Shown here: positions 35,530-58,706 of the stretch, piece by piece
Layout: the number at the start of each line of letters is the position of its first letter
Position numbering within the stretch: position 1 is the first letter of the stretch
Source of the DNA: an uncultured Candidatus Saccharibacteria bacterium
GTDB taxonomy: Bacteria > Patescibacteriota > Minisyncoccia > JBAYJV01
Length of the DNA: 62,526 nt
NCBI GenBank assembly: GCA_964398685.1
Contig: CAYNNF010000005.1
Coordinates: 1 to 62,526, forward strand
Direction of reading: 5' to 3'
Notes under the pieces: generated by a model
What the model was told of the DNA's origin: nothing
The model's database searches: none
The model's input: the letters and a program-made list of their open reading frames with translations, nothing else
Program-made: the position numbers and the translations under genes

Positions 35530-35550
35530 GCCCTGAACATAGGGCTTTTT
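35530..35550 (+). terminator. Weak terminator-like hairpin
   Basis: gccct-gaacat-agggc followed by ttttt. The stem is only 5 bp. Confidence 0.35.
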
Positions 35551-35634
35551 CTAAATTCAATAATAGGCGTTTGTTTAAATAAGTTAAATCTTTAAAATAA
35601 GTATAGGTGTTAAGTTTTAAGTTTTACGCATAAC

Positions 35635-36324: not shown

Positions 36325-36329
36325 AAAAT

Positions 36330-37112: not shown

Positions 37113-37117
37113 CAATT

Positions 37118-38440
37118 ATGAAAACAAAACTAAAATTATCTGTCATCGGTCTTGGAAAATTAGGCATTTGCGCAGCCGTTTGCCCCGCGTATAAGGGATA
37201 TAAGGTGATTGGTCTTGATATTGATAAAAAAACAGTCGCGCTCGTTAATAAAGGAAAAGCGCCCGTGATTGAACCGGGACTTCAGGTCCTATTAAACAAG
37301 GCAAAAAAGAATTTACGCGCCACTCAAGATTCAGAAAAAATAATTAAAGAATCTAATGTCACTTTTTTAATTGTCCCAACGCCCTCAAAACCGGATGGGC
37401 ATTTTTCAGACAAGCTCCTTTTGAGCGCTTTAATCCCCTTGTCAAAGTCCTTAAGGCATAAAAATAGTTATCATCTTTTTGTGATTACATCAACTGTTTC
37501 ACCGGGAACAATTGAATCAAGTTTGATTCCCTTGATTGAAAAATATTCCGGCAAAATTTTGAATAAAGATTTTGGCATTTGTTATAATCCGGAATTTATC
37601 GCACTTGGAAGTGTTATTCATGACACCCTAAATCCTGATATGGTTTTAATCGGAGAGTCAAATAAAAAAGCGGGAGATATTTTAGAAAAATTTTATAAAA
37701 ATCTTTGCGACAATAAACCGTACATCGCAAGAATGTCTATTATATCCGCTGAAATTGCAAAGATTAGCTTGAATGCTTATATCACTATGAAAATTAGTTT
37801 TGCCAATACTCTGGGAAATCTTTGTGAAAGAATCTCTGGCGCAGAAGTTGATAAAATCAGCAAAGCTTTAGGCGCCGATAAAAGAATTGCGCCGTCTTAT
37901 CTCAGGGCAGGGTTAGCATACGGCGGTCCCTGTTTTCCGCGCGATGGTCGTGCTTTTACGGCTTTTGCCAAAAAATATTTTTATGATGCCAAACTCGTTA
38001 AAGCAACCGACGCAATTAATAAGTTGCAAATAGAATTGATTACTAAAAAAGTTCAAAATATTTTTAAAAATTCACACAGCAACACTGTTTCAATTTTAGG
38101 ACTTTCTTTTAAACCAGATACTCCTGTTATTGAAGAATCGGCCGCTATTTTTCTTATTAAGGAACTGCTTAAAAGTAAAGCCGAAATTACTGTTTATGAT
38201 CCGTTGGCAATAGAAAACACAAAACGAGTTTTTAAAAATAAAATTAAGTATGCTGATTCTCTCAAAAAATGCGTTGGGTCGTCTTTCATTGTTATAATAA
38301 CAACTCCAGATAAGAAATTTTATAAAATTAATAAAAACAATTTTACAAAAAAAACAATCGTTATTGATTGTTGGAGAATTTTAGAGAATAAATATTTAGG
38401 AGAAAATGTGACCTATGAAGCAATCGGAAAAAGCAAATAA
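37118..38440 (+). CDS. Nucleotide-sugar 6-dehydrogenase (UDP-glucose/GDP-mannose dehydrogenase family), canonical
   Basis: It has the Rossmann motif VIGLGKLG and the catalytic-Cys block AYGGPCFPRDG. The start is moved to MKTKLKL (37118), just after the nadE stop. Confidence 0.8.
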   Translation: MKTKLKLSVIGLGKLGICAAVCPAYKGYKVIGLDIDKKTVALVNKGKAPVIEPGLQVLLNKAKKNLRATQDSEKIIKESNVTFLIVPTPSKPDGHFSDKLLLSALIPLSKSLRHKNSYHLFVITSTVSPGTIESSLIPLIEKYSGKILNKDFGICYNPEFIALGSVIHDTLNPDMVLIGESNKKAGDILEKFYKNLCDNKPYIARMSIISAEIAKISLNAYITMKISFANTLGNLCERISGAEVDKISKALGADKRIAPSYLRAGLAYGGPCFPRDGRAFTAFAKKYFYDAKLVKATDAINKLQIELITKKVQNIFKNSHSNTVSILGLSFKPDTPVIEESAAIFLIKELLKSKAEITVYDPLAIENTKRVFKNKIKYADSLKKCVGSSFIVIITTPDKKFYKINKNNFTKKTIVIDCWRILENKYLGENVTYEAIGKSK

Positions 38441-39245
38441 AATAAACAGGGTAAAACAATATTGGAATGACCGCCCTTGCAATGTTCGTCATTCGCAAAG
38501 CAAATTTGGCACAAAAAAATATTTTGAAGAAGTTGAAAAAAGAAAATATTTTGTTGAACCCCATATCCCTGCGTTTGCTCAATTTAAAAAATGGAAAGGA
38601 AAAAAGGTTTTAGAGCTCGGTTGTGGTATCGGGACCGACTCAATTAATTTTGCAAAAGCAGGAGCTGAATTAACCGTTGTTGAGCTGTCTAAAAAAAGCC
38701 TTGAAATTACTCGCAGAAGATTTAAAACTTACAACCTCAAGGCGAAATTCTTTGAAGGAAATATTGAAGAGCTAAGTGAGTTTTTGCCAAAAGAAAAATA
38801 TGATTTGATTTATTCATTTGGTGTTATTCACCACACGCCAAATCCAGAAAAAGTTTTTGAAGAAATTAAAAAATATTGTAAGCCAGAAACAGAATTAAGA
38901 ATTATGCTTTACTCAAAGTGGTGTTGGAAAGTGTTTTGGATTATTATGGGCTATGGCAAGGGAAAATTTTGGAAGATAAAAAAACTCGTCCCCCAATATT
39001 CGGAAGCCCAAACTGGATCGCCGGTAACATATATTTATTCTAAAAAAGAAATTTATCGCCTAATGAAAGATTTTGATATCGTCAAAATATATAAAGACCA
39101 TATTTTCCCCTATGTGATTGATGATTATAAAAAATACCGTTATAAAAAAGTTTGGTATTTCAGATACTTGCCGCATTTTTCCTTTAGATGGCTTGAAAAA
39201 AAATTGGGCTGGCACACTTTAATTGTGGCAAAGCCAAAAAGATAA
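38415..39245 (+). CDS. Class I SAM-dependent methyltransferase
   Basis: Motif I is VLELGCGIGTDSINFAKAG, and the post-I/II spacing is typical. Confidence 0.8.
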   Translation: MKQSEKANKINRVKQYWNDRPCNVRHSQSKFGTKKYFEEVEKRKYFVEPHIPAFAQFKKWKGKKVLELGCGIGTDSINFAKAGAELTVVELSKKSLEITRRRFKTYNLKAKFFEGNIEELSEFLPKEKYDLIYSFGVIHHTPNPEKVFEEIKKYCKPETELRIMLYSKWCWKVFWIIMGYGKGKFWKIKKLVPQYSEAQTGSPVTYIYSKKEIYRLMKDFDIVKIYKDHIFPYVIDDYKKYRYKKVWYFRYLPHFSFRWLEKKLGWHTLIVAKPKR

Positions 39246-40471
39246 TGAAAATCTTCTTTATACAACCAACGGGCGACAAAATGGGCCATTATGGCATCTA
39301 CACTACTCATGTCTGCCAAGAAATAGCTAAACAGGGCGCCGACATAACCCTTTTTACCAATAAAATTTACCCGGAAAAATACATTGAAGAAAAACCTCTT
39401 TTTAATATTGTTGAATTTAAAAATGGCAAATATGGTTTTGAAAAATTTGACCGTCTTAAAAAGAAATTGCCTTTTTTGTATTTATATGCTTACTTAAGAA
39501 ATTCTTTTGTGGCTATTCGTGAGGCGATTAAGTATTTGAAAAAAAATGATTTTGATATTGTTTTTGTGATGGATACAGAATACGGAATTCTCTCCTTGCT
39601 CCTTAAATTATTTGGCAGAAAAATACCGCCGTTAATTTTAATGGTTCAAGCGGCTAATTTTTCCTTTAAAAAGTTTGCGGGAAATTTTCTTTTTAAAACT
39701 TATAAGGTTCTTCAAAAACAAATTTTAAAGAGCGCTGTTAAAAAAAGAATTAAAGCATTTTTAGTTTTAGGAGAGTTTCATAAAGAAGAATTAAAAAAAC
39801 AACTTAAGTTAAAAAATGATTTTCCAATTAGAGTCGTATATGACGGCGCTGATCCGCCAAAAGAATTTCTGGACAAGATTAGCGCTCGAAAAAAAATAAA
39901 TATAAAATGCGATGGACCGCTTTTTCTCTTTTTCGGGATGCTTAGAAAAGATAAGGGCATTGAATATCTTTTAAAAGCTGTTTCTCTGTTGAAAAACGAA
40001 AATTTTAAACTGGTTATTGCCGGCTCTTTGTTTGAATACAGTGAGGATGAAATCAAAAAACTAATCAAAAAATTAAATATAGAAGAAAAAATTATTCTTC
40101 GGCTTGGGTATGTGGAAGATAAAAATGTTCCTCTCTATTTTTTCTCAAGTGATGCCGCAGTTTTTCCTTATAGAAAAATCTATACCGGTGGAAGCGGACC
40201 CTTGTTAAAAGAAGCGGCGATTTATAAAACACCGGTTATAGCAAGCGATGTGTCCGAAATGGGCAGATTGGTTAAAAAACATAAAATGGGTTTAGTAACG
40301 GAGCCGGAAAATCCAGAAGATTTGGCAAATAATATGAAAAAGTTTTTATCTATGAATAACCAAGAAAAAAAAGAGCTCTCAGACAATGTGGCAAAAGCGG
40401 CAAACACTTGGGAAAAAATAGGAAAAGAATATTTAGCTTTCTTTAAAGAAATTATCAATGAAAAGAATTAG
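39245..40471 (+). CDS. Glycosyltransferase, GT4-like (GT-B fold)
   Basis: The 408-aa length, the C-terminal ...GGSGPLLKEAAIYKTPVIASDV... and the E-x7-E-like region are typical of Glycos_transf_1. Confidence 0.7.
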   Translation: MKIFFIQPTGDKMGHYGIYTTHVCQEIAKQGADITLFTNKIYPEKYIEEKPLFNIVEFKNGKYGFEKFDRLKKKLPFLYLYAYLRNSFVAIREAIKYLKKNDFDIVFVMDTEYGILSLLLKLFGRKIPPLILMVQAANFSFKKFAGNFLFKTYKVLQKQILKSAVKKRIKAFLVLGEFHKEELKKQLKLKNDFPIRVVYDGADPPKEFLDKISARKKINIKCDGPLFLFFGMLRKDKGIEYLLKAVSLLKNENFKLVIAGSLFEYSEDEIKKLIKKLNIEEKIILRLGYVEDKNVPLYFFSSDAAVFPYRKIYTGGSGPLLKEAAIYKTPVIASDVSEMGRLVKKHKMGLVTEPENPEDLANNMKKFLSMNNQEKKELSDNVAKAANTWEKIGKEYLAFFKEIINEKN

Positions 40472-41909
40472 AAATTTTCTCTTTAAAAATACTAGTCAAA
40501 AACAAACAATTTTCAAGAATACCTTTTGGCTTTCTTTTTCTGAAGTTATCGTCAGATTGTTAAAATTAAGTTTAATTATTTATGTCGCGCGTATTCTGGG
40601 AGCAACTGAATACGGAAAATTTACTTTTGCCTTTGCTTTTATTTCTTTATTCGCGATTTTTTCTGATTTAGGCATCTCCCCAATTGTCGCGCGAGACATT
40701 GCAAAAGATAAAGAAAAAGAAAAAGAGTTTTCTTCTGTTCTCTCTCTTAAGATTCTTTTGGCAATAGGAGGAATGGTTGCTGTTTTCGTCGGTTCATTTT
40801 TTATTACTTCTGATCCTTTAATTCGCAAGCTGATTTGGGTTTTGGGAATTTATGCTTCAAGTGCTAGTTTTAGCAGTATCATTTATGCGTTCTTGCAGGC
40901 AAGACAAAGAATGGAATATCAGGCATGGATTGTTGTTTTTCAAACATTCTTAGTCACAGGCGCTGGATTTTTTGTTCTTTTCAATTTCCCTTCTGTCCGA
41001 AATTTGGGTTTGGCTTACTTATTCGCCAGTTTAGCTTCTTTAATTCTTCTTCTTTTCATTTTCAACTTTAAATTTGTTCGCTTAAAACTGTCTTTTAATA
41101 AAACTGTTTGGAAAAATCTTATAAAAGTATCTTGGCCTTTGGCTCTCGCGGGCATGTTTGCTACTGTTTATAATTCCATTGACTCTGTTATGATGGGCTA
41201 CTGGGGACAAATTACAGAAACTGGCTGGTATAATGCTTCTTATAAAATCATCGGTATAACACTTATTCCCATGGGACTTATCGGTCAAGTTTTTTATCCG
41301 GCCTTAAGCAGGTTTTCTAAAAAATCAAAAGAAAGCTTTCAAAACATCTGGAATAAGCAAATGGAAATGATGATTATTTTAGCTGTTCCAATAATGGTGG
41401 GAGGTATTGCTCTTGCTCCTAAAATTATTAAACTTATTTATAGTGAAAGCTTTCTCCCCGCCACTCTCTCTCTTAAAATTTTACTTATTATGACAGCCAT
41501 TCTATTTTTGTCTAACCCAATTCAACAGGCCATAGTTGTGTTTAATCAACAAAAAAAACTTTTTTGGATTACGATGACGGGGGCAATAATAAATATATTC
41601 TTAAATTTTCTCTTAATTCCAAAGTATAGTCTCAACGGTGCCGCCATCGCTACGCTCATAACCTATGCAATAGTTTTCTTTTTATTGATTAAGCTTGTCG
41701 TAAAATTCAACCCGATTCATCCTATAAATTTAAAGTTTTTTTCGGCATTAACTGTGGCTATCATTGCCAGCATTCCAATGTATTTTGTCATAACCTATTC
41801 TAAGATTTATAATTTAAATGTTATCTTTTCTGTTATAATCGGAACTATGATTTATTTTTTATTTATACTTAGCGCGAAAAAAATTCTAAAAAAGAATAGG
41901 ATGTTTTAG
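40458..41909 (+). CDS. wzx: Wzx-type oligosaccharide flippase (MOP superfamily)
   Basis: 483 aa with about 12-14 TM segments. The N-terminal KNTFWLSFSEVIVRLLKLSLIIYVARILGATEYGKF is typical of polysaccharide-biosynthesis (Wzx) proteins. Confidence 0.75.
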   Translation: MKRIRNFLFKNTSQKQTIFKNTFWLSFSEVIVRLLKLSLIIYVARILGATEYGKFTFAFAFISLFAIFSDLGISPIVARDIAKDKEKEKEFSSVLSLKILLAIGGMVAVFVGSFFITSDPLIRKLIWVLGIYASSASFSSIIYAFLQARQRMEYQAWIVVFQTFLVTGAGFFVLFNFPSVRNLGLAYLFASLASLILLLFIFNFKFVRLKLSFNKTVWKNLIKVSWPLALAGMFATVYNSIDSVMMGYWGQITETGWYNASYKIIGITLIPMGLIGQVFYPALSRFSKKSKESFQNIWNKQMEMMIILAVPIMVGGIALAPKIIKLIYSESFLPATLSLKILLIMTAILFLSNPIQQAIVVFNQQKKLFWITMTGAIINIFLNFLLIPKYSLNGAAIATLITYAIVFFLLIKLVVKFNPIHPINLKFFSALTVAIIASIPMYFVITYSKIYNLNVIFSVIIGTMIYFLFILSAKKILKKNRMF

Positions 41910-41918
41910 CTTTAAAAA

Positions 41919-42029
41919 ATGAATGATTGTGAAAATATTTCCATAATTATCCTCGTCGCAAGAACAAACACAAGATTTAATCGCAACAATAATAATTTGT
42001 TTAAACAATTTCTTAAAATCGATTTTTAA
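41919..42029 (+). CDS. 36-codon ORF upstream of the radical SAM gene (peptide or GT2 gene remnant)
   Basis: It encodes MNDCENISIIILVARTNTRFNRNNNNLFKQFLKIDF. It starts 10 nt after the wzx stop and ends 15 nt before the radical SAM start. ISIIILV resembles the first beta-strand of GT2 enzymes. Confidence 0.25.
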   Translation: MNDCENISIIILVARTNTRFNRNNNNLFKQFLKIDF

Positions 42030-42044
42030 AATTAATCAAAAAAA

Positions 42045-43118
42045 ATGGATATTAAAAAAATAAGCAGAGTTAGTAAAAACTCTCTAAAAAGTGCTAAAAA
42101 TTTAGCTATCAGAAATTCTGGCAAACCTATGAAACCACGCTGGCTCGTTTTTATGCCGACAGGCAACTGCAATTCGCACTGCCAGCATTGCAATATCTGG
42201 CAAAATCCTCCCAAGTCTAAACCGTTAAGCTTGAAGGAAATTACTCAAGCTCTTCAAGATCCGTTATTCAAAAATATTTGTGAAATTATTAATACTGGTG
42301 GAGAAGTGAGCTTAAGGAACGATCTCGCTGAAATTATTTATATAGAACACAAGATTTTACCCAAGGCAAAACTCCAGATGAGCACTAATGCCCTTCTTCC
42401 TCAGAAAATTCTTGATGTTTCAAAACGGCTTTTAAAAAATAATATCCCTATTTCTATCGGCGTGTCTTTGGATGGCATAGGAGAAAAGCATGATAAAATT
42501 AGGGGCGTTCCAGGAAATTTTAAAAAAGCTGATTTTCTTCTAAAGGAATTGGTAAGCTTAAGAAAAAAATATAGTAAAAACCTTGAATTTGCTATTGGCT
42601 TCACTCTTTCGGATTTAACGCTTGAATCTCTTAATGAAGTTAATGACTATGGCAAAAAATTAGACATTGATGTTTTGGTTCAATACTACAACCAATCGCC
42701 TTTTTATGGTAATAACAATAGTCAGTTAAACATAAATAAAAAATTATATAATGCGGTAGCTTCTTTTGAGCCGTCTTTCTTAAAAGAAATGTGGCTTTCT
42801 TCGTTGAAGGGAAAATTTTTCAAGTTTCCTTGTTTTGCATTGAATACTTTTTTTGTCTTGACATGGGCTGGCGATATTGTTCCTTGCCTTAATTATTTTG
42901 ATATTTCAGCCGGCAATATCAGAGAAAAAAGCCCTTCGGAAATTTGGAAAAGCAAAGAAGCTCAGCAGATAAGAAAAATGGCAAAACGCTGTAAGGGGTG
43001 TCTCAATCAATGGGCTTACGGTTGGAGCTTAGAATCATGTACTTTCCCTGTTTTCTCTTTCTATCTTAAAAATCCAAAAAAACTGATAGAAAGATTTAAG
43101 CAGAGAGGAATAGAATAA
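42045..43118 (+). CDS. Radical SAM enzyme with C-terminal SPASM/twitch-like Cys-rich domain
   Basis: The CxxxCxxC cluster is in GNCNSHCQHCNIW. The C-terminal pattern is CFALNTFFVLTWAGDIVPC...GNIREKSPSEIW...CKGC. Confidence 0.8.
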   Translation: MDIKKISRVSKNSLKSAKNLAIRNSGKPMKPRWLVFMPTGNCNSHCQHCNIWQNPPKSKPLSLKEITQALQDPLFKNICEIINTGGEVSLRNDLAEIIYIEHKILPKAKLQMSTNALLPQKILDVSKRLLKNNIPISIGVSLDGIGEKHDKIRGVPGNFKKADFLLKELVSLRKKYSKNLEFAIGFTLSDLTLESLNEVNDYGKKLDIDVLVQYYNQSPFYGNNNSQLNINKKLYNAVASFEPSFLKEMWLSSLKGKFFKFPCFALNTFFVLTWAGDIVPCLNYFDISAGNIREKSPSEIWKSKEAQQIRKMAKRCKGCLNQWAYGWSLESCTFPVFSFYLKNPKKLIERFKQRGIE

Positions 43119-44197
43119 TGAAAATTACTTTTATTACTTCTGGCCTTGGCCTTTCTGGTGGCAATAAAGCAATTTTTGAACTTGCCAATTGCTTGACAGA
43201 TCGCGGCCATCAAGTTTTTGTTGTTTGTTCTTTAACTCCGTTTATATTTCAAGACAAATGGTTTAATCCGTTCAATGTCTTAACTAAGCTTTTGAGAATA
43301 TTCAAAAAATCAAAGGGTTGCGGAGTTTTTGTTAAATGGTTTGACTTGAAAGCGACGGTATTGTCGGTTCCTTCTCTTCGAGAAAAATATATTCCAGATG
43401 CAGATATTATTTTGTCTACTTGGTGGGAGACAGCTTATTTTGTAAAAAAATATAGCAAGCAAAAAGGTGAAAAATTTTACTTTGTTCAAGATTATGAAGA
43501 TTGGGTTAGTAAGACAGGGCGTGTACGCAAAAGCTATCAGCTTGGTCTTAAGCATATAGTTAATTCAAGCTGGCTCAAAAAAACGCTCAAAAAAATGGCA
43601 GGCACAAACGTAGAATCAATTATTTTACACGCGCCAGACCATAAACAATTTTATCCTCAAAAAATTAAAAGAAAGAAAGGTATAATACGGATTTTAATGC
43701 CCTATAGAGATGAAGCGCGAAAAGGCACACAAGAAGGGTTAAAAATTATAGAGCTCGTGCAAAAAAAATACCCGAACATCCAACTTGTATTATTTGGAAA
43801 AAGAAAACCAGAACATATTTCTCGCCTATTGGATAAAGCCGAATTTCATCTTTGTCCAGTAAAAGATGAATTGAGAAAATTATATAATTCATGCGATATA
43901 TTTCTTTATCCTTCGCTTAAAGAGGGCTTTGGAATGCCGCCAATGGAAGCAATGGCTTGTTGTATTCCGGTTGTAACTACAAATGCTGGCGCGATTTCTG
44001 AATATACTTTGCCAGGAAAAACCGCTTTAGTTTCAGAGCCCGGAGATATTAAAAAAATGGCAAAAGATATTATTGGTCTTATAGAAAATCCTAAGAAAAG
44101 AAAACAAATCGCCTGTGCTGGGCAGAAATATATTCAAAATTTTCGCTGGGAAAAAGCAACTAAAGAATTAGAAGCTGTTTTTAAAAAATATTTATGA
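43118..44197 (+). CDS. Glycosyltransferase, GT4-like
   Basis: EGFGMPPMEAMACCIPVVTTNAGAISE is the Glycos_transf_1 signature. Confidence 0.8.
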   Translation: MKITFITSGLGLSGGNKAIFELANCLTDRGHQVFVVCSLTPFIFQDKWFNPFNVLTKLLRIFKKSKGCGVFVKWFDLKATVLSVPSLREKYIPDADIILSTWWETAYFVKKYSKQKGEKFYFVQDYEDWVSKTGRVRKSYQLGLKHIVNSSWLKKTLKKMAGTNVESIILHAPDHKQFYPQKIKRKKGIIRILMPYRDEARKGTQEGLKIIELVQKKYPNIQLVLFGKRKPEHISRLLDKAEFHLCPVKDELRKLYNSCDIFLYPSLKEGFGMPPMEAMACCIPVVTTNAGAISEYTLPGKTALVSEPGDIKKMAKDIIGLIENPKKRKQIACAGQKYIQNFRWEKATKELEAVFKKYL

Positions 44198-45210
44198 AGA
44201 TTTTGTACCACATAAAACAACCCAGAGGCATGGGAGCCCATCGATTTATATATGATGGATATAAAAATGCTTGGCAAGATTTGGGACATGAATTCTTGCC
44301 CCTTACAGATAAAGATAATTTAAAACAAAAACTCATTGGCACAAAGCCAGATCTATTTTTCGCATCACTTGACTACCTCCATTTCCCCCAAGATATTAAG
44401 ACAATTAAGAAAGCTCGTTCTTTGGGAATAAAGGTCTTTATGGGAGTCGGTCACTTATTTGACAGAGACCCAAATATTTTAAAAATTATGCAAGATCCTG
44501 AATTTGCCGATTTATATTACGGAGAAAAAGAGCCAGAATGTATGGCACATTTTAAAAAATTAATTGGCAAAGATTACCATACCATTGCTCACGCAGCTGA
44601 TAAATTGCATCATTTTCCTGTCGCCCCATCAAAAAAATATGCTTATGATATTGCCTTTCTCGGCGCAAAATTACCCATGAAAAAATGGTTTTTTGATGAA
44701 ATACTAATTCCTTTAACCAAAAAGTACAAAGTTGGAATATTCGGACCATATTGGACAATTAAAGATAATTTTCTGAGAGCCATACAAGCGGGAACAAGAA
44801 AAATAAAATTAGCTCGCACTTCTGATTTTATAAACAAACTGAGAATCACTCTGCCAATTGAAGATGAGTCGCTACTGTATTCATCAGCAAAAATTTCCCT
44901 TAACTTCCACGAGAGAGAATCTGACGGAAGCCAACCAAACTATATTTTAAACCAAAGAACTTTTAAAATTCCCGCTTGTGGCGGATTTGAGATTTGTGAT
45001 GATGTGCCAGCGCTCAGAAAATATTTTAAAGAAGATGAAATGGTCATAGCTAAGCTCAGCGCAAAAGAATGGTTTGAGAAAATTGATTATTATTTGACCC
45101 ACGATAAAGAAAGAGAAAAAATAAAAAAAGCCGGAACTAAAAGAGCGCTTAAAGATCACACATATCACAACAGAGTTGAACAAATTATTAAAATGTATAA
45201 AACAATATGA
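44194..45210 (+). CDS. CgeB-like glycosyltransferase (Glyco_trans_1_2-type)
   Basis: The C-terminal block ISLNFHE...NQRTFKIPACGGFEICDD...EREKIKKAGTKRALKDHTYHNRVEQI resembles CgeB/spore-maturation-type GTs. Confidence 0.55.
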   Translation: MKILYHIKQPRGMGAHRFIYDGYKNAWQDLGHEFLPLTDKDNLKQKLIGTKPDLFFASLDYLHFPQDIKTIKKARSLGIKVFMGVGHLFDRDPNILKIMQDPEFADLYYGEKEPECMAHFKKLIGKDYHTIAHAADKLHHFPVAPSKKYAYDIAFLGAKLPMKKWFFDEILIPLTKKYKVGIFGPYWTIKDNFLRAIQAGTRKIKLARTSDFINKLRITLPIEDESLLYSSAKISLNFHERESDGSQPNYILNQRTFKIPACGGFEICDDVPALRKYFKEDEMVIAKLSAKEWFEKIDYYLTHDKEREKIKKAGTKRALKDHTYHNRVEQIIKMYKTI

Positions 45211-45386
45211 TTAAATTTACGAAACACGCGATTGAAAGAATTAAGCAAGACGGGATTAAGCAATCTTATTTTAGACTCGGCAGAAGATCTGCTCAAAGCT
45301 ATCTGAGACTAAAAAAGAACATCATAGTTAAATCAATTAAAATTTTCCGATCTAAGAGGGGGGGTATGTTGTCAAAAAAGTATTAA
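45207..45386 (+). pseudogene. 5' fragment of an FkbM-family methyltransferase gene, out of frame with 45479-46186 at a G7 tract
   Basis: Its ATG overlaps the upstream stop (ATGA at 45207-45210). The frame ends ...FRSKRGGMLSKKY* shortly after the G7 run. One extra G would join it to the frame encoding GGGYVVKKVLNNKFILNLKDKGIT...GDIVIDIGANIGYY. Confidence 0.65.
45358..45364 (+). repeat. Poly-G tract (7 G) at a frameshift point
   Basis: ctaagaGGGGGGGtatg. A homopolymeric G run in an AT-rich genome, located exactly where the two reading frames of the FkbM gene meet. Confidence 0.9.
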
Positions 45387-45478
45387 ATAATAAATTCATT
45401 TTAAACTTAAAAGACAAGGGAATAACTTGCGACCTTCTTTTATCCGGTATTCGCGAACCCTTCTCAACTAAAACAGTT

Positions 45479-46186
45479 ATGAAAGAAATTAAAAAGGGGG
45501 ATATAGTTATCGATATTGGAGCGAATATAGGATATTACGCTCTTATGGAAGCTAATCTTGTTGGTAGTAAGGGAAAAATATATGCCATTGAGCCTGTTCC
45601 TCAAAATTTCAAACTTCTAGAACACAATATTGCTCTGAATAACTACACAAATATAGAAACTTTCAATTTAGCTATTGGCGCAAAGAATATGATAAACCCC
45701 ATATATTTAACTCCTCATTGCAACTGCTGTTCAATGATAAAAGATGAATCAAAAATTACTGAAAAAATAATGGTAAAAACCGTAATCTTAGACAAGTTTT
45801 TGAAAGATAAACCCACACCAAATTTTATTCGTATGGATACAGAAGGTTATGAATTTGAAATCATTCAGGGTATGAAAAAAACATTAGCCGTTAAAAAACC
45901 ACTTAGAATTTTTATAGAAATACATCCTACAATCATTAAAAACAAGGTCGTAGAATTATTAGATATTTTGGAGCAACATGGGTTTGAGGTAAAAAGAGCC
46001 GCTTGGGAAATGGATCCACTCTTAATTAGGGAAGTTGGATTGGTCAAAATAATTTATAATTATTTTTCATCAAAAATTAATTCTCCTAATTTACATCCCG
46101 GTTATTTTAATACAAACATAAAAGAGCTTAAAAAAATTCTAATAAAATCTGAGTCTGCTTGTCATGTATTCTTTGAAAAAAAATAG
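45479..46186 (+). CDS. FkbM-family SAM-dependent methyltransferase (catalytic part; frame open from 45356)
   Basis: It has DIGANIGYYAL (motif I) and RMDTEGYEFEI, the FkbM signature. Confidence 0.75.
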   Translation: MKEIKKGDIVIDIGANIGYYALMEANLVGSKGKIYAIEPVPQNFKLLEHNIALNNYTNIETFNLAIGAKNMINPIYLTPHCNCCSMIKDESKITEKIMVKTVILDKFLKDKPTPNFIRMDTEGYEFEIIQGMKKTLAVKKPLRIFIEIHPTIIKNKVVELLDILEQHGFEVKRAAWEMDPLLIREVGLVKIIYNYFSSKINSPNLHPGYFNTNIKELKKILIKSESACHVFFEKK

Positions 46187-46189
46187 TCT

Positions 46190-46879
46190 ATGAGCTTACA
46201 AAACAAAAAAACAAAACTAAGGCAGATTTTAAGAAAGCTTATTAGTAAAGTTTTAGAAGAACGCCTTAATCGTACTTTCGTAAGGTTGGATAAAAACATA
46301 CTCCGACTATCCAAGAAACTTATTAATTATAAAATCATCGCCCTTAATTATCATGAAATACAAATACTATTTCAGTTGATTGGCTTAATCAATAATATAA
46401 AGGGAGATATAGCAGAATTAGGAGTCTATAGGGGGGGAAGTGCAAAAGTTATATGCGAAGCAAGAACGAAAAATAAAACACTACACTTATTCGATACTTT
46501 TGACGGTATGCCTACCCCGAGCGAGATAGATAATGATATTTTTTACAAAGGATCTTTTACTACAAATCTTACAACAGTAAAAAAATTATTAAAGCGACAC
46601 AAACAAATTAAGTATCACATCGGTGTTTTCCCGGAAACAGCCAAAGAAGTAGGTAAAATAAAATTTTCTTTCGTTCATTTAGATGCTGATATTTATGAAA
46701 GCACGAAATCTGGACTTGAGTTTTTCTGGCCGAAAATAAATAAAGGTGGCATTGTTTTAATTCATGACTATCCTTGCGCCCTTGGTGTTAAAAAAGCTGT
46801 TGAAGAATTTTTTCAAGATAAACCTGAGTATATTATCAGAATCTCTCATCATCAAGCATTAATTGTTAAATTTTTATAA
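46190..46879 (+). CDS. TylF/MycF-family (macrocin-type) O-methyltransferase
   Basis: GDIAELGVYRGGSAKVI, LFDTFDGMP and VHLDADIYESTKSGLEFFWPKINKGGIVLIHDY are TylF-class blocks. Confidence 0.75.
   Translation: MSLQNKKTKLRQILRKLISKVLEERLNRTFVRLDKNILRLSKKLINYKIIALNYHEIQILFQLIGLINNIKGDIAELGVYRGGSAKVICEARTKNKTLHLFDTFDGMPTPSEIDNDIFYKGSFTTNLTTVKKLLKRHKQIKYHIGVFPETAKEVGKIKFSFVHLDADIYESTKSGLEFFWPKINKGGIVLIHDYPCALGVKKAVEEFFQDKPEYIIRISHHQALIVKFL
46431..46437 (+). repeat. Second poly-G tract (7 G), currently in frame
   Basis: tataGGGGGGGaag encodes the RGG of the SAM-binding loop GVYRGGS. Confidence 0.9.
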
Positions 46880-46942
46880 CACAGGAAAAAATAAATTCAG
46901 GTTTATTTATTATGTATTTTTTGAAAAAAATATTAATATTCT

Positions 46943-47869
46943 ATGAATTTGAAAAATAAAAAAATATTAGTTACTGGTGGCGCTGGCTTTATTGGCTCTC
47001 ATACAGTTGACGCTTTAATAAAAAAAGGTGCGAGAGTTGTTGTCGTTGATAATTTGTCAACCGGCAGAAAAGAAAACCTAAATCCTGCCGCAAAATTTTA
47101 TAAGCTAAATATCAATAGTCCAAAAATAGAAGAAATTATTAAAAAAGAAAAACCGGAAATCATTTATCATTTTGCCTTTTATGTTAAGGTTCCAAAATCA
47201 GTTCAAGACCCCATGCTTGATATGGATTGCCTTATCGGTTCGATAAGAATTTTAAAAGCAGCGAGAGAGTTAAAGAATTTTAAAAAATTTATTTTCGCTT
47301 CATCCGGATTCCTTTACAAAGACAGCAAAAATCTTTCCATACAAGAAGGCGCTCCAATAGATCCAATATCTCCTTATATTATTGCCAAGCGGGCTGTTGA
47401 AGATTATGTCGGTTTCTTTAAAAACGCCTTTGGCGTACCTTATGTAGTTATGCGCTATACGACTACTTACGGCCCTCGCCAGACAACCGGCGCTATGGCA
47501 GATTATATTAAAAAGTTATCACAGGGAAAACAGGCTGAAATTTGGGGGGACGGAACAAAGATTAGAGATTATCTTTATGTCAAGGACGCAGTCCGCGCAA
47601 ATCTCAAGGCGCTTAATATAAAAAACGATTATCCTAATCCTGTTTTTAATGTCAGTACAGGTATTGAAACTACATTAAACGACCTTTATCATAAGATTGC
47701 GCGCCTTTTAGGAAAAAAAGCTAAACCGATTTATTATCCTGATAGACCGAGCGAACGAATGCGCTGCGCTCCCGACGCATCAAAAATTAAAGAAGAATTA
47801 GGATGGAAACCGACAGTTTCGTTAGATGAAGGACTTATTAAGCTGCTCAAGTTTTGGCATTTGCTCTAA
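46943..47869 (+). CDS. NAD-dependent nucleotide-sugar epimerase/dehydratase (GalE-like extended SDR)
   Basis: It has ILVTGGAGFIGSH and the catalytic YxxxK (SPYIIAKRA). Confidence 0.75.
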   Translation: MNLKNKKILVTGGAGFIGSHTVDALIKKGARVVVVDNLSTGRKENLNPAAKFYKLNINSPKIEEIIKKEKPEIIYHFAFYVKVPKSVQDPMLDMDCLIGSIRILKAARELKNFKKFIFASSGFLYKDSKNLSIQEGAPIDPISPYIIAKRAVEDYVGFFKNAFGVPYVVMRYTTTYGPRQTTGAMADYIKKLSQGKQAEIWGDGTKIRDYLYVKDAVRANLKALNIKNDYPNPVFNVSTGIETTLNDLYHKIARLLGKKAKPIYYPDRPSERMRCAPDASKIKEELGWKPTVSLDEGLIKLLKFWHLL

Positions 47870-47905
47870 AGAAAAATCAATTTTTTAACATAAATAAACA
47901 TATAT

Positions 47906-49003
47906 ATGAAAAAAGCTTTAATTACCGGCATTACAGGACAAGACGGCTCGTATCTCGCCGAATTCCTTTTAGACAAAGGGTATACAGTTTATGGAATCAA
48001 GCGCCGTTCTTCTTCTTTTAATACGGCGCGGATTGACCACATCTATCAAGACCCCCATGAAAGAAAAAAAAGACTGATCCTTTATTATGGAGACATCACA
48101 GATATGGCAAATATTATTAATATTGTTCAGCAAGTTAAGCCAGATGAGATTTACAATCTTTCTGCCCAAAGCCACGTTAAAGTTTCCTATGAAACGCCGC
48201 TTTATACAACCGACACTGATGCTCTTGGAACATTAAGAATTTTAGAAGCTATTCACATATTGGGGCTTGAAGATAAAACCAAATTTTATCAAGCATCTAC
48301 CAGTGAAATGTTTTCGGGCGATCCGAAAGAAATTCCTCAAAATGAAAAAACGCCTTTTCATCCTCGCAGCCCTTACGGAGTTGCTAAGTTATACGCCCAT
48401 TGGATAACAGTTAATTATAGGGAAGCATACAATATCTTTGCCTGTTCTGGGATATGTTTCAATCACGAAAGTTCCCGCAGAGGAGAGACATTTGTTACTC
48501 GAAAAATTACCAGGGCGGCTTCAAGAATTAGTCTCGGTCTCCAAGATAAGCTCTATTTGGGCAACTTAAACAGTAAAAGAGACTGGGGCCATGCCAAAGA
48601 TTATGTCAAGGCAATGTGGCTCATTCTTCAGCAAAAAAAACCAGACGATTATGTTATCGCCACTGGTAAACAACATTCAGTAAGATATTTTTGCGAAACT
48701 GCTTTTCGAGAGCTTGGCATTGAGCTCAAATGGCAAGGCAAGGGAGTAGACGAAAAAGGAATAGATAAAAAAACAAAAAAAGTTTTAATAGAAATTGACC
48801 AAAGACAATTCCGTCCCGCCGAAGTAGATTCATTAATGGGAAATAGCGCTAAGGCAAGGCAAAGGTTAGGATGGCAGCCCGAAATAAATTTCAAGGAATT
48901 GGTAAAAGAAATGGTTGGCGCTGATTTGGAAGAAGCAAAAAAAGATGTTCATTTAACAAATGGAGGATTTAAGATTAAAAGTAATTTTGAACAATATGAT
49001 TAA
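47906..49003 (+). CDS. gmd: GDP-mannose 4,6-dehydratase
   Basis: [47 protein letters not shown]... and [18 protein letters not shown] are highly characteristic Gmd blocks. Confidence 0.9.
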
Positions 49004-49928
49004 TTTGGCTAAAAAGAAAATTTTAATCACCGGCGCTCATGGCTTTCTGGGAAAAGAGTTAGCTAAATTACTGCTGGCTAAAAAAGTCCCAAAAAAAAAT
49101 CTATTTTTGCCAACAGCAAAAGATTTAGATTTAAGAAAATGGGGAAACTGCCAAAAGGCGGTCAGGAACCAAGAAATTGTTATTCACCTTGCCGCAAAAG
49201 TTGGCGGCATTGGATTTAATCAAGAAAATCCAGGAGAGCTATTCTACGATAATGCCATAATGGGCATCCAGTTAATGGAAGCGGCTCGAAAAGCAGGTAT
49301 TGAAAAATTTGTCGCCATAGGCACGATTTGCTGCTACCCCAAATTTACTCCTGTGCCTTTTAAAGAAGAAAAAATCTGGGATGGCTATCCTGAAGAAACA
49401 AATGCTCCCTACGGTTTGGCAAAAAAAATGCTTTTAGTCCAATCTCAGGCCTATAGATCGCAATACGGATTTAATTCAATTTTTTTGATGCCTGTTAATA
49501 TGTATGGTCCAGGTGATAATTTTGATCCCAAAAGCTCTCATGTTATCCCCGCGATTATTAAAAAATGTTTAGACGCCAAAAAGGATAATGAAAAAGAGGT
49601 GGTTCTCTGGGGAAGCGGAAAAGCGACAAGAGAATTTTTGTATATTGAAGATGCCGCAAAAGGAATTGTCCTTGCCACAAAAAAATATAACAAAACTGAT
49701 CCAATCAATTTAGGTTCTGGAAAAGAAATTTCAATTAAAAATCTTGCCCTTTTAATAAAAGAATTGACGGGCTTCAGTGGCAAAATAGTATGGAATAAGG
49801 CTAAGCCAGATGGCCAACCACGCCGGTGCCTTGATGTTAAAAAAGCAAAAGAAGAGTTTGGATTTGAAGCAAATACTGATTTTAAAAAGGGTCTTAAAAA
49901 AACTATTCAGTGGTATATAAATGACTAG
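48996..49928 (+). CDS. fcl: GDP-L-fucose synthase (GDP-4-keto-6-deoxymannose 3,5-epimerase/4-reductase)
   Basis: It has [36 protein letters not shown] and [12 protein letters not shown]. The start at MINLAKKK overlaps the gmd stop. The gmd-fcl order is canonical. Confidence 0.85.
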
Positions 49929-50796
49929 TATGACTAAAATTTGTGCAGTAATCATCAGTTATAATCCCGACAAGCTTATTGAAAAATGCGCATTTTCTGT
50001 TGTTAGTCAGGTAGATAAATTATTGATTATAGATAATGGATCTAAAAAAGAAAAAATTGAGATTTTGAAACGACCAAAAAAAAAGTTCGAGAAAATAAAA
50101 CTAATATTAAATAAAGAAAATTTGGGTATAGCCACCGCCCTTAATCAGGGAGCAAGATATGCTATAAAAAACAAATACAACTGGCTCTTAACCCTTGATC
50201 AGGACAGCATCCTTGAAAAAGATATGATTAAAAAAATGTTAAATACCTATGGTCAACTAAGTCAGAAAGATAAAGAGAAAATTGGCATTTTGGCGCCAAA
50301 TTATAAAACTGCCAAGGGCTTAACTTATAAAGAAAAACCTGCTATACAAGTTGTACCAGTCGCTATTACTTCTGGTCAATTAGTCAAAATAAGTCTTTTT
50401 AAAAAGATTGGAAATTATAAAGATGATTTGTTCATAGAGTGTGTTGATAATGAATTTTGTCTAAGGGCTAAAAAAGAAGGTTACGAAACAATCATTATTT
50501 CTAGGGCAGTCCTCTCTCAAAAAATTGGCGACAATCCAAAAACAAAAAAATTGTTTGGCAAAAGGTTTATTGTTAGCGGTCATTCGCCCATTAGATTTTA
50601 TTATATTTTTAGAAATAGTATTTACTTATATAAAAAATTTTTTTTTAATTCTCCTAAATGGGTTTTTGGTAATATTTTTTCTAATACAAAATTAGTATTT
50701 AAAATAATCTTTTTTGAAGATAAAACTTTAAAAAAGATTTCCATGGCCTTAAAAGGGGTTGTTCATGGATTAGCAAATCATTATGGAAAATATTAA
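49921..50796 (+). CDS. Glycosyltransferase family 2 (rhamnosyltransferase-like)
   Basis: It has AVIISYNPD, IIDNGS and LTLDQDS (DxD-type). Confidence 0.75.
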   Translation: MTSMTKICAVIISYNPDKLIEKCAFSVVSQVDKLLIIDNGSKKEKIEILKRPKKKFEKIKLILNKENLGIATALNQGARYAIKNKYNWLLTLDQDSILEKDMIKKMLNTYGQLSQKDKEKIGILAPNYKTAKGLTYKEKPAIQVVPVAITSGQLVKISLFKKIGNYKDDLFIECVDNEFCLRAKKEGYETIIISRAVLSQKIGDNPKTKKLFGKRFIVSGHSPIRFYYIFRNSIYLYKKFFFNSPKWVFGNIFSNTKLVFKIIFFEDKTLKKISMALKGVVHGLANHYGKY

Positions 50797-50872
50797 GAAA
50801 CATAGGAACAGTGATCCAGATTTTATTTTATTTTATCGTCCTTCGTAAAAATGTTTAATTATAATCTTTATA

Positions 50873-51757
50873 ATGAAATCAAATAATTTATTAGAGGCAT
50901 GCATAATTTTAATTCAAAACCCAAAATTATTTTTAAGGTATGTAAATTACAAAATTAAACGAAAAAGTAAAAAATGGAAAAATGCCCCAACAAAAAAATT
51001 TAGAAAAATTATTGGCGGTATAAAAATCAATTATGATTTTAAAAATGTAGATTATGGAGAAATGTACCTTAAACAAATATACTTTGATGAATACGAAATG
51101 CCTGTTGTAGAAATGATTAAACGATATTTAAAGCCAGGCGATACATTCATTGATGTGGGTGCTAATATAGGATATATCACTGCAGTAGCCGCCAATGAAG
51201 TTGGGGAAAACGGCGAAGTACATACTTTTGAACCTGTACCAATTTACTTTCACTATCTAGAAAAAATAGCTATTTTTAATAAAAAATATAAGATTTTTAC
51301 CAACAAGGTCGCATTAGGGAACAAAAAACAAATAGCAAAAATGCAGATAACCCTTCCACCGCACACGGGTGGCAGCAGTTTGATTTTAAATAATTCAAGT
51401 GCCAAAATTACAAAAAAAATTATTAAAGTTCCAGTTGTAAGACTTGATGATTACATTAAAAATAATAGTTTAAGCAAAATTTCTTTGATAAAAATTGATG
51501 TAGAAGGATTTGAATTTCAAGTATTGCAAGGTCTCGAAAACTACCTAAATTCAAAAAATAAAAAACCTGTTATTATTATGGAATTTACACAGAATGTTTA
51601 TGGTTCTTCTATTGTTTTAAGAAATTTCGAAAACTTTATAACAAAACACGGCTACACCGCACGATCTATTTACAATTACAAAAAACATATAAATATTCGA
51701 CGAATTAAAAGAACTGGGGATATATTACTTGTACCAAACAATAAACTCATAATTTAA
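50873..51757 (+). CDS. FkbM-family methyltransferase (intact paralog)
   Basis: It has FIDVGANIGYITA and KIDVEGFEFQVL. Its N-terminal ~90 aa resemble the split gene at 45207-46186 in layout. Confidence 0.75.
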   Translation: MKSNNLLEACIILIQNPKLFLRYVNYKIKRKSKKWKNAPTKKFRKIIGGIKINYDFKNVDYGEMYLKQIYFDEYEMPVVEMIKRYLKPGDTFIDVGANIGYITAVAANEVGENGEVHTFEPVPIYFHYLEKIAIFNKKYKIFTNKVALGNKKQIAKMQITLPPHTGGSSLILNNSSAKITKKIIKVPVVRLDDYIKNNSLSKISLIKIDVEGFEFQVLQGLENYLNSKNKKPVIIMEFTQNVYGSSIVLRNFENFITKHGYTARSIYNYKKHINIRRIKRTGDILLVPNNKLII

Positions 51758-51766
51758 TAAATCATT

Positions 51767-52753
51767 ATGGAAAATAAGATGGCAAAAAATCCTTTGGTTT
51801 CTATTATTATCCCTGCGTATAATGCAGAAAATTATATCCGAAGAGCGATTGAAAGCGCACTTAATCAAACCTATAAAAATATAGAAATTTTTGTTATTGA
51901 TGATGGGTCAACCGACAATACGGCCAAGATTATTAAGTCTTACAAAGACCCACGACTCATTTATTTGTATCAGAAAAATCAGGGACAAGGAAGAGCGCGT
52001 AATTACGCTATCGGCAAAAGCAAAAGAGAGTACATTACATTTTTAGACGCTGATGATATTTATCTTCCGGAAAAAGTTGAAAAAGAAGTTCGGTTTTTAT
52101 TAGACAATCCTCGGTATCAAATTGCTTATTGCAATATGTTGCATTTTTATGCTGATAAGCCCGATCAGTTTTTTAGAAAAAAACATCCATACTATTCGGG
52201 AGATCTTTTGGATGATTTGTTAAATTCGGTTTTTTTAAACTTGAGCACAATAATGATCTCTCAAGAACTTTGGAAAAAAGTAGTTGGCGCATTGAACGAG
52301 AAAAAATATTATTCAGAAGATTGGGAAATGTTCCTAAAAATAGCAATTAATGGCTTTCTCTTCGGATATATAGATGAGGATTTAGTTAAAGTTGAGATTA
52401 GAAAAGACGGCAATACTAGATTAGAAAATCAATGGATGGTAAAAGAAAACGCTATAAAAATTTTAGAAAAGATCTACCCAAAAATTCCCAAAGAAAGAAT
52501 TAGAAAAAATCAAATGGAAAAAATCTTTAGAAAAATGGAGTTTAAACTTGCTATTGCTTATTTGTTGGTCGGAAAGAAAAAAGAATTTTATAAAACTTTT
52601 GTTAATTTATTGGCTCAGCCATTAAAAATTCTCCTTTATATTCCGGCAATAGTTTTAATTGCAATTCCTTCTTTTATTTTAAAGCCCCTTCTTAAAAAAA
52701 TATGGTTAATAAATCAGTTGCGTAATTCCTATTCAGAGAAAAATGAAAAATAA
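51767..52753 (+). CDS. Glycosyltransferase family 2
   Basis: VSIIIPAYNAENYIRRAIESALNQTYKNIEIFVIDDGSTD and FLDADD are classic GT2 motifs. Confidence 0.85.
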   Translation: MENKMAKNPLVSIIIPAYNAENYIRRAIESALNQTYKNIEIFVIDDGSTDNTAKIIKSYKDPRLIYLYQKNQGQGRARNYAIGKSKREYITFLDADDIYLPEKVEKEVRFLLDNPRYQIAYCNMLHFYADKPDQFFRKKHPYYSGDLLDDLLNSVFLNLSTIMISQELWKKVVGALNEKKYYSEDWEMFLKIAINGFLFGYIDEDLVKVEIRKDGNTRLENQWMVKENAIKILEKIYPKIPKERIRKNQMEKIFRKMEFKLAIAYLLVGKKKEFYKTFVNLLAQPLKILLYIPAIVLIAIPSFILKPLLKKIWLINQLRNSYSEKNEK

Positions 52754-53774
52754 CAAAAAACAAAATTCATTGCCATTGATTTCTGTGATAATGCCCGTTA
52801 GAAATGAAGAGAATTTTATCAAAAGTTGCGTAGAAAAAATCTTGTCTCAATCATACCCGCTAAATAAAATAGAGGTATTAGTTATAGATGGAATGAGCGA
52901 GGATAAAACTCGTACAAAAATTGAAGAACTTATCAAGACAAATTCCGGAACTAATATTAAAATTTTTGATAATCACAAAAAGGCAAGATCTTCTGCCTTA
53001 AATATTGGTATTAGAAATGCCAAGGGAGAAATTGTTATAAGAATAGACGCAAGGACAATTATCTCCAAAGATTATATTCGCAAATGTGTTATAACTCTAC
53101 TTAAAACTGGAGCCGATAATGTTGGGGGCATCCAGAGACCCATGCCAACCAAGGGAACGCAACAAGCCATAGGACTGGTCATGTCACATCCTTTTGGCGT
53201 AGGCAATGCCCAATTTCGTTTGGGCAAAAAAAGCAGTTTTGTGGATAGTGTTTATCTTGGCTGTTTCAAAAAAGATATTTTTAAAAAAATAGGGTTTTTT
53301 GATGAAAGTTCGGGCATTATTAGCGAGGATTCTGACATTAACTACCGCATTAAAAAAGCAGGCGGCAAGGTTTATTTAAACAAAGATGTTATTGCTTACT
53401 ATTATCCTAGAGATAATTTTAAGGATTTATGGAAACTTTATTTCCGTTATGGCGGATCCAGAGCAGGTAATTTTTACAAACATAAAGTTTTAAAAGCACG
53501 CCAATTTATTCCGCTTATATTTTTAATAAGTCTTGCGCTAACAGGCATTCTCTCTTTTTTCAGTTCATACTTTTTTATACTTTTCTGCATAATATTGATA
53601 AGTTATTTTGTAGCTGATTTCGTTTCATCATTATCTATTACTAGACGAATTAAAAACATTAAATTACTTCCAAGTCTATTCATCTCTTTTCCCTGTATGC
53701 ATTTTTCCTGGTCGCTGGGATTTATTACAAGATTATCTTTGGGACCATGTTATAAAAAAGATTGGAAATACTAA
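52743..53774 (+). CDS. Glycosyltransferase family 2 with C-terminal TM segments
   Basis: It has ISVIMPVRNEENFI, VIDGMSEDKT and RIDAR, plus C-terminal hydrophobic helices. Confidence 0.8.
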   Translation: MKNNKKQNSLPLISVIMPVRNEENFIKSCVEKILSQSYPLNKIEVLVIDGMSEDKTRTKIEELIKTNSGTNIKIFDNHKKARSSALNIGIRNAKGEIVIRIDARTIISKDYIRKCVITLLKTGADNVGGIQRPMPTKGTQQAIGLVMSHPFGVGNAQFRLGKKSSFVDSVYLGCFKKDIFKKIGFFDESSGIISEDSDINYRIKKAGGKVYLNKDVIAYYYPRDNFKDLWKLYFRYGGSRAGNFYKHKVLKARQFIPLIFLISLALTGILSFFSSYFFILFCIILISYFVADFVSSLSITRRIKNIKLLPSLFISFPCMHFSWSLGFITRLSLGPCYKKDWKY

Positions 53775-53816
53775 ACTCAAATTTTTATAATTTTAGTCAA
53801 ATAATTAATTACTAAT

Positions 53817-54749
53817 ATGAAAATTCTTATTACAGGGGTTGCTGGTTTTATCGGAAGCAACCTTGCTGATCGCTTAATCAAAGAAGGTCATCAGGTTGTT
53901 GGTATAGATAATCTTTCTTATGGTGTTAAGGAACAAGTGCCCAAAAAAGTTAAATTTCATAAATTAGATATCAGGTCAAAAAAAATTTATCCTTTGTTTA
54001 AAAACATAGATTTTGTTTTTCACTTAGCTGCTAAAAATTGCATTGCGGATTGTCAGGAAAATCCCGTCGAGACCTCAAGCATCAATGTCGCTGGCACTGT
54101 CAATGTTTTTGAAGCCTCAAGATGTTCTAAGGTTAAAAAAATAATTTACGCAGAATCAGCAGCAATTTACGAAGGAAGTAAAACACTGCCTACGCCAGAA
54201 TATGATGAAAAACCAGAAAGTTTTTACGCGATTAGCAAATTGTCTTCCGCTCTGTTCGCCAAAGCTTATAATCATTTTTACGGACTCAATTTTACCGCTC
54301 TTCGTTATTTCTGTGTTTACGGTCCCCGCCAAGATTACAGAAGAACCATTCCTCCAGTAATGAGCGCTTTTATCATTAAGCTCCTTAAGAATGAAAAGTC
54401 TATAATTTATGGATCAGGAAAGAAACGAAGAGATTTTATTCATATAGACGATATTAATGACTTTCATCTTCTCTGTATTAAAGACGCAAAAACTGATAAC
54501 AAAGTTTTTAATTTAGGTAATGGGAAAAGCTATTCAGTTTTAGAAATTTATGATATGGTCAGTAAGATATTAAAAAAGAATATCTCTCCAGTTTTTAAAA
54601 AGAATTTGCCGGGAGAAGCCCAGGAAACTTTGGCTGATATCCGCTTAGCTCAAAAAATTGGCTGGAAACCAAAAATAAATATTGAAACAGGCATCAAGGA
54701 TATGATTGAATATATTAAAGAAGAAATCAAAAAAAATAACATTAAATAA
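53817..54749 (+). CDS. NAD-dependent nucleotide-sugar epimerase/dehydratase
   Basis: It has ILITGVAGFIGSNL and YxxxK (SFYAISKLS). Confidence 0.75.
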   Translation: MKILITGVAGFIGSNLADRLIKEGHQVVGIDNLSYGVKEQVPKKVKFHKLDIRSKKIYPLFKNIDFVFHLAAKNCIADCQENPVETSSINVAGTVNVFEASRCSKVKKIIYAESAAIYEGSKTLPTPEYDEKPESFYAISKLSSALFAKAYNHFYGLNFTALRYFCVYGPRQDYRRTIPPVMSAFIIKLLKNEKSIIYGSGKKRRDFIHIDDINDFHLLCIKDAKTDNKVFNLGNGKSYSVLEIYDMVSKILKKNISPVFKKNLPGEAQETLADIRLAQKIGWKPKINIETGIKDMIEYIKEEIKKNNIK

Positions 54750-54752
54750 AAT

Positions 54753-55463: not shown

Positions 55464-55467
55464 AATT

Positions 55468-56469: not shown

Positions 56470-56473
56470 ATAT

Positions 56474-58703: not shown

Positions 58704-58706
58704 AAC

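Follow-up and report, generated by a model that had tools for sequence, protein, structure and literature searches.

Two runs of seven G residues, named T1 and T2 in the present study, lie in adjacent methyltransferase genes of a surface-polysaccharide locus in the 62,526-nt contig CAYNNF010000005.1 of an uncultured Candidatus Saccharibacteria bacterium (hereafter the window, meaning this whole stretch). T1 throws an FkbM-family gene out of frame, and T2 is read in frame within a TylF-type O-methyltransferase gene. Comparison of the window with public consensus contigs of the same organism (ENA, Logan, JGI and NCBI) revealed that both tracts change length on DNA that is otherwise identical or nearly so, with the consequence that each gene is intact in some assemblies and broken in others. 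We consider it probable, though well short of certain, that T1 and T2 are slipped-strand (simple-sequence-repeat) contingency switches acting on methylation of a surface glycan.

The FkbM gene starts at ATG 45207, whose letters overlap, as ATGA, the TGA that ends the preceding glycosyltransferase (GT)-like gene (44194–45210), and it reaches T1 at codons 51–53; the tract is followed by MLSKKY and a stop, so that the open reading frame (ORF) is 59 residues long. The frame of the FkbM domain is open from 45356, and one extra G at T1 joined the two into a 326-residue protein (...SKRGGYVVKKVLNNKF...GDIVIDIGANIGYY). This protein matched Pfam PF05050 (FkbM) over residues 103–261 (E 2e-25, 90.3 bits against a cut-off of 22.7) and also PF05575 V_cholerae_RfbT (33.6 bits against a cut-off of 27.9), and homologues of 320–333 residues covered 97–100% of it with the invariant residues retained. 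With a domain score above the curated cut-off and full-length collinearity, the repaired protein is predicted to be a member of the FkbM methyltransferase family. Since full-length homologues align to the whole of it, the 59-residue ORF represents the genuine N-terminus of the enzyme. The 235-residue remnant downstream lacks the family-invariant or near-invariant residues D70, G72, L77, R83, E84 and P85 (REP motif). A Shine–Dalgarno sequence was looked for at the potential internal restart, ATG 45479, but such motifs are nearly absent throughout the locus: the 20 nt upstream of 29 plus-strand starts (34049–61029) contained weak Shine–Dalgarno-like matches in four cases. Many of the genes overlap or abut, and translation initiation in the glycan locus seems to be independent of Shine–Dalgarno pairing.

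T1 sits in a linker (KRGG) that is gapped, variable and non-conserved in the alignment of homologues. The closest orthologue of the FkbM protein (55% identity), whose gene is part of a syntenic locus of a 768,753-bp contig, has no T1 tract, and no G/C run of six or more was found in 17 kb there. Because the nearest orthologue is without the tract and the linker is not conserved, T1 has evidently been acquired within this lineage, at a position that tolerates it, as is usual for contingency genes. Scanning metagenome and genome contigs with the 235-residue fragment gave distant relatives only, at 30–51% identity (Nitrosopumilus and Chitinophaga MAGs, i.e. metagenome-assembled genomes); the close assemblies described below were obtained by exact-protein look-ups and not by such fragment scans.

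The TylF-type gene starts 4 nt past the FkbM stop codon. Its product matched PF05711 (E 3e-21, 76.2 bits against a cut-off of 23), as well as NovP (2wk1) and MycF (4x7v). T2 occupies codons 81–83 and encodes the R-G-G in 'AELGVYRGGSA'; this segment aligns with 'AETGVWRGGA', a loop of the solved TylF-family O-methyltransferases 5i10 and 4cdz. In the alignment to these two structures both the GV(W/Y)RGG S-adenosylmethionine (SAM) loop and the LD(A/G)D.YEST metal/substrate motif were conserved, and the protein is therefore classed, by prediction, with the TylF/MycF/NovP sugar O-methyltransferases. Given the 4-nt spacing, one may speculate that a T1-OFF allele also lowers TylF translation. An earlier note on this DNA, prepared from the letters of the window, had described the ORF from 45207 with its early stop, the frame restored by one G and the RGG of the SAM loop encoded by T2, all of which were reproduced at the same coordinates. 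Its remark that the layout of the FkbM gene parallels that of the intact FkbM paralogue at 50873 holds more loosely, as the 34% identity between the two is confined to the catalytic domain and does not extend beyond it.

The locus was found by exact-protein look-ups in about 30–39 blocks of the public assembly collection. Across these assemblies T1 was mostly G7 (59-residue product), with G8 (326 residues, FkbM intact) and G9 (61 residues) also present, and T2 was mostly G7 (229 residues), with G8 (95 residues, TylF broken) also present. Exact-product look-ups placed the T1 = G7 product on 12 contigs, the full-length G8 product on 2–3 and the G9 product on 2–3; for T2, 14 contigs carried the G7 product and one carried the G8 product, and a second contig reads G8 at T2. 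The same look-ups found no products of T1 at G4, 5, 6, 10, 11, 12 or 13 and none of T2 at G5, 6, 9, 10 or 11. Each of the variant lengths is present in at least two assemblies.

The exact 326-residue FkbM product was carried by three contigs whose DNA is otherwise identical to the window, and T1 = G8 was recorded from ENA, Logan and JGI sources. ENA ERZ27248954 equals the window around both tracts; ENA ERZ27248936 equals it over 20,981 bp except that T1 is G8, and so does Logan SRR8437245 over 15,289 bp. JGI 3300028276 differed from the window over 20,372 bp by T2 = G8 and one single-nucleotide polymorphism (SNP), and by nothing else. A second strain, 1–2% diverged, carried T1 = G9 in three assemblies (JGI 3300022553, JGI 3300025824 and the NCBI MAG GCA_007280065.1), and on this second background JGI 3300025285 carried T2 = G8. 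Thus T2 = G8 has arisen on the backgrounds of both strains. Of the four FkbM/TylF states that are possible, three were seen: OFF/ON (the dominant state and that of the window), ON/ON and OFF/OFF. When tract lengths were compared across related assemblies, a test that the earlier note had named for its phase-variation proposal, the outcome was therefore positive. Within the otherwise identical main strain, a C/T SNP at 56692 in a UDP-glucose dehydrogenase-like gene also segregates (C in the window and in JGI 3300028191, T in ERZ27248954 and in JGI 3300028276), and it could mark whether tract alleles recur on different backgrounds.

The variation was restricted to the two G7 tracts when other homopolymers were used as controls. 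In the same 20,980 bp, both of the G runs of seven or more varied, and none of the 66 A/T runs of at least seven (20 of them of at least eight) varied within the main strain; the G6 and C6 runs likewise did not vary within the strain. This pattern fits localized hypermutation of the G tracts. It also bears on the idea that the true tract length is the same everywhere and that miscalls or assembler bubble choices generated the G7, G8 and G9 versions. Homopolymers are error-prone, and the second-strain contig with T2 = G8 (Ga0208046_1002535 of JGI 3300025285) begins at window position 46415, 16 nt upstream of T2, a hint of assembly trouble; the break might stem from a split of the assembly graph, where tracts of different length were mixed in the sample. 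However, a noisy platform or assembler would be expected to hit the A/T, G6 and C6 runs as well, and their constancy therefore argues against one. Each variant length was replicated (G9 in two JGI samples and the NCBI MAG, T2 = G8 in two JGI samples), and ERZ27248936 and ERZ27248954, which share a contig-naming style and have nearby accession numbers, nonetheless differ in tract length. A consensus contig represents the majority of reads, and low per-read error rates do not overturn a majority. A homopolymer error, the alternative that the earlier note had offered, is accordingly disfavoured, and we regard it as quite improbable.

A different line of argument, that G runs are enriched in this locus, did not survive. 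The window holds exactly five G/C runs of six or more, at 45358 (7), 46431 (7), 47544 (6), 57797 (C6) and 57896 (6), precisely the set listed in the earlier note. An apparent excess under mononucleotide shuffles (P = 0.05) disappeared under both stricter null models: Markov simulations of order 1–3 expected 4.7–6.5 runs of at least six and 0.9–1.2 of at least seven (P = 0.25–0.32 for two or more G7 runs), and synonymous-codon shuffles of 56 long ORFs expected 3.4 and 0.6 such runs respectively in coding DNA. The glycan locus makes up ~45% of the window, and the placement of all five runs in it is only weakly unusual (about 0.02, post hoc); it may be added, again post hoc, that both tracts use the rarest codons for their residues (GGG, 9% of Gly codons; AGG, 13% of Arg codons). 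Viewed from sequence alone, the split FkbM gene would be an unremarkable frameshift.

We then weighed mutational decay, according to which the FkbM gene is a young pseudogene, the lesions in the TylF gene and in the GDP-mannose 4,6-dehydratase gene gmd are sporadic losses of function under relaxed or diversifying selection, and the tract lengths are stable strain alleles. Several observations are in its favour or weigh against switching. Homopolymers are the likeliest sites of indels in any case, and the number of G/C runs is not above the composition nulls. FkbM is OFF in ~90% of the assemblies, with T1 = G7 in at least 22 of the 24 contigs read. G9, out of frame like G7, was found in all three second-strain assemblies and looks fixed there, a pattern that the slow drift of an inactive gene would explain as well. 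The G8 contigs from JGI, Logan and ENA may derive from the same reads. Moreover, lengths of G7–G9 are at the short end of the tracts known to switch fast.

The second strain has further frameshifts at shorter runs, and these look more like decay than designed switching. The G4 that encodes part of the conserved RDWGH motif of gmd is G5 in two second-strain assemblies (JGI 3300022553 and JGI 3300025285), splitting the gene into products of 254 and 129 residues; the truncated 254-residue product occurs on five contigs, and the NCBI MAG of the same strain keeps G4. This is a further G-run indel in the locus, too short for a classical switch. In JGI 3300022553 the second FkbM gene (50873–51757) has A6 changed to A7 together with a cluster of SNPs near its 3′ end (51494–51559), with a product of 278 instead of 294 residues (three contigs). 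The ~220–234 SNPs that separate the second strain (contigs L021, L022 and L023) fall nearly all into two blocks, 36467–37058 and 39013–39898, which affect an NAD-synthase/QueC-like gene and the 3′ end of a methyltransferase gene plus a GT4 gene; this suggests recombination mosaicism inside the glycan locus, and such mosaic blocks would also suit decay. The sole A/T homopolymer difference seen between the strains, A8 to A7 at the intergenic position 42038 upstream of the radical SAM gene at 42045 (three of three second-strain assemblies), looks fixed and not variable.

Decay has difficulty, however, with the in-frame G8 allele of T1 on a background identical over 21 kb, which would require a very recent loss or a reversion, and with the independent appearance of T2 = G8 on two backgrounds. 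The FkbM–TylF segment (45207–46879) has no SNP between the strains and no lesion besides the tracts. Across more than 20 kb of the main strain, a single SNP stands against changes in each of the two runs of at least seven G, which indicates localized hypermutation. On balance we judge decay to be unlikely, although it is the more serious rival.

A third explanation would leave the G7 allele functional, by programmed −1 ribosomal frameshifting at G GGG GGU or by transcriptional slippage yielding full-length FkbM. Formally, T1 conforms to X XXY YYZ, and the frame would be regained by a shift of −1. G-only heptamers, however, are inefficient slippery sites, and slippage of RNA polymerase is known mainly for long A/T runs. 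No stimulatory structure was found downstream (the 99-nt fold had a z-score of −0.89, and 38 of 200 shuffles folded as well), and the orthologue, being without the tract, needs no recoding. Furthermore, alleles of G8 and G9 exist at the DNA level and explain the frames, and G9 would require a different shift from G7. We therefore rejected T1 as a programmed frameshift site and consider recoding to be highly improbable.

Returning to slipped-strand switching, phase variation in the formal sense must affect a single locus, be reversible and reach a minimal switching rate, with variants appearing in a clonal population in the absence of selection (PMC11868660). In the terms of that review, each repeat lies within the ORF of a single locus (T1 in FkbM, T2 in TylF), its length toggles the gene ON or OFF at the level of the reading frame, and stretches of 15–21 kb differ only at the tracts and at one SNP, as expected of localized hypermutation. 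As to reversibility, one and the same background carries both ON and OFF alleles, and T2 = G8 is present on two backgrounds, the direction of change being unreadable from assemblies. A high rate and reversibility of tract switching are presumed, and the weaker label of contingency locus, which denotes localized hypermutation and does not require reversibility, applies.

In the mechanism that we propose, slippage during replication would alter the length of a poly-G tract by one base. T1 at G8 would give the full FkbM enzyme, with G7 and G9 stopping translation after 59 or 61 residues, and T2 at G7 would give the full TylF-type enzyme, with G8 stopping it after 95. The population would then be a mixture of cells whose glycan carries or lacks one or two O-methyl groups; this glycan probably contains a 6-deoxyhexose, judging from the presence of gmd and from the kinship with TylF, MycF and NovP. 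Selection could plausibly come from phage, from host-cell recognition or from grazing. The fuller proposal, that this is a two-switch combinatorial phase variation of surface methylation in a Paceibacteria-like member of the candidate phyla radiation (CPR), with a majority phasotype that flips between samples of the same environment, is put forward more tentatively, and we would rate its chances as slightly below even.

The features discussed are collected in Table 1. The locus also encodes a polyprenyl glycosylphosphotransferase (priming), a Wzx-type flippase, GT2/GT4 transferases and a radical SAM/SPASM protein, together with gmd, a GDP-sugar epimerase/reductase, two FkbM and one TylF methyltransferases, sugar nucleotidyltransferases and dehydrogenases. 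Rfam and tRNA scans of the window gave four tRNAs only, far from the locus. The nearest relatives of the SecA protein were from 'Candidatus Paceibacterota' (74% identity), followed by Giovannonibacteria and Niyogibacteria (57–58%), which puts the organism within Patescibacteria/CPR, close to 'Candidatus Paceibacterota'.

Table 1. Coordinates of the switch candidates and of related features in the window
Feature	Position	Strand	Basis or remark
Surface-polysaccharide locus on one strand, ~28 kb	34049..62526	+	gene content
FkbM-family sugar/glycan methyltransferase gene, frameshifted in the window (OFF allele)	45207..46186	+	full-length homologues; exact 326-residue product elsewhere
5′ fragment ORF, 59 residues, product of the G7 allele	45207..45386	+	first ~52 residues, true FkbM N-terminus; align with full-length homologues
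Tract T1, G7 here (OFF)	45358..45364	+	G8 (ON) and G9 (OFF) in other assemblies
3′ remnant ORF of the FkbM gene, 235 residues, −1 frame	45479..46186	+	carries the Pfam domain
TylF/MycF/NovP-type O-methyltransferase gene, intact in the window (ON allele)	46190..46879	+	PF05711; structure alignments
Tract T2, G7 here, in frame	46431..46437	+	AGG GGG GGA, RGG of the SAM loop
G4 in gmd (47906–49003)	48585..48588	+	G5 in part of the second strain

Towards one side, the housekeeping flank at 12–35 kb served as a further control: in 24 contigs it came out as one and the same place, the neighbouring proteins being mostly the same. The minus-strand flank at ~12000–34000, read via contig L026, encodes a Fic-domain protein, an AbiEii-like toxin, an LTD/PKD-repeat surface protein and two large Wzy_C (O-antigen-ligase-like) proteins of 614 and 728 residues, which are candidates for surface or defence functions adjoining the glycan locus. 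At the other end, JGI 3300028191 equals the window over 55207–62526. Past 62526 its gene calls differ from those of ERZ27248954 (the last epimerase has 323 versus 318 residues and the next gene is different), a sign that the glycan locus varies in structure at its distal edge.

Contingency switches made of poly-G tracts are long established in Campylobacter, Neisseria, Haemophilus and Helicobacter. The closest parallel is with the capsule and lipooligosaccharide switches of Campylobacter jejuni, among them G8-ON/G7-OFF cases and the heptose methyltransferase gene cj1426 (PMC8437040). As in C. jejuni (cj1426; cj1139, wlaN), the genome is small and AT-rich, so that G/C runs of seven or more stand out, the tracts are located within the ORFs of enzymes that modify glycans and whose genes cluster in a surface-polysaccharide locus, and a one-base change toggles the frame, T1 sharing the same G8-ON/G7-OFF arithmetic; several such switches give combinatorial 'phasotypes' (PMC8437040). 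cj1426 is likened to the present genes as a capsule methyltransferase. C. jejuni, however, is a host-adapted pathogen with 29 tracts per genome, whereas the present organism is an uncultivated environmental CPR bacterium with two tracts in 62 kb, whose putative switching is read from assembly sequences.

A second likeness is to RfbT/WbeT of Vibrio cholerae O1 (Ogawa/Inaba), as the FkbM protein scored above the cut-off of PF05575. In V. cholerae, loss of this FkbM-related O-antigen methyltransferase changes a surface epitope and leaves the backbone untouched. Conversion to Inaba there proceeds through many different, mostly irreversible rfbT mutations, with no dedicated repeat tract. In Mycobacterium tuberculosis, the 7C tract of glpK is likewise a run of about seven G/C residues in a coding sequence whose frameshift variants were found by comparison of many genomes and not in culture assays (PMC10334774; review PMC11868660); it differs in being located in a metabolic or drug-tolerance gene of a GC-rich genome and in being backed by tens of thousands of isolates and by experiments. 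Within the CPR, a hypervariable 9-mer repeat gene of Gracilibacteria combines local hypervariation with slipped-strand mispairing, but there the repeats form an in-frame array of peptides within a single large protein, with heterogeneity at the nucleotide level, and no ON/OFF switch of an enzyme by homopolymer frameshift is involved (PMC6851277). This gene was the only CPR case of such hypervariation in literature searches that found no report of repeat-mediated phase variation in CPR, Patescibacteria or Saccharibacteria.

Taken together, a natural and nearly clonal population shows, across public metagenomes, ON and OFF alleles of two glycan methyltransferases. For those who work with MAGs this carries a warning: a gene that looks 'frameshifted' at a run of at least seven G should neither be repaired without comment nor be dropped as a pseudogene. 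Most CPR/Patescibacteria have not been cultivated. A life attached to host cells is assumed for them, and for this reason hosts and phages are likely to meet them at their surface glycans. To our knowledge, almost nothing is known of how these bacteria vary their surfaces. If the proposed switching is true, existing public reads would allow one to measure directly how phage or host cells select on the CPR cell surface in situ, and the corresponding hypothesis at the read level is that the majority tract length varies with sample, with depth or time, and with phage or host abundance.

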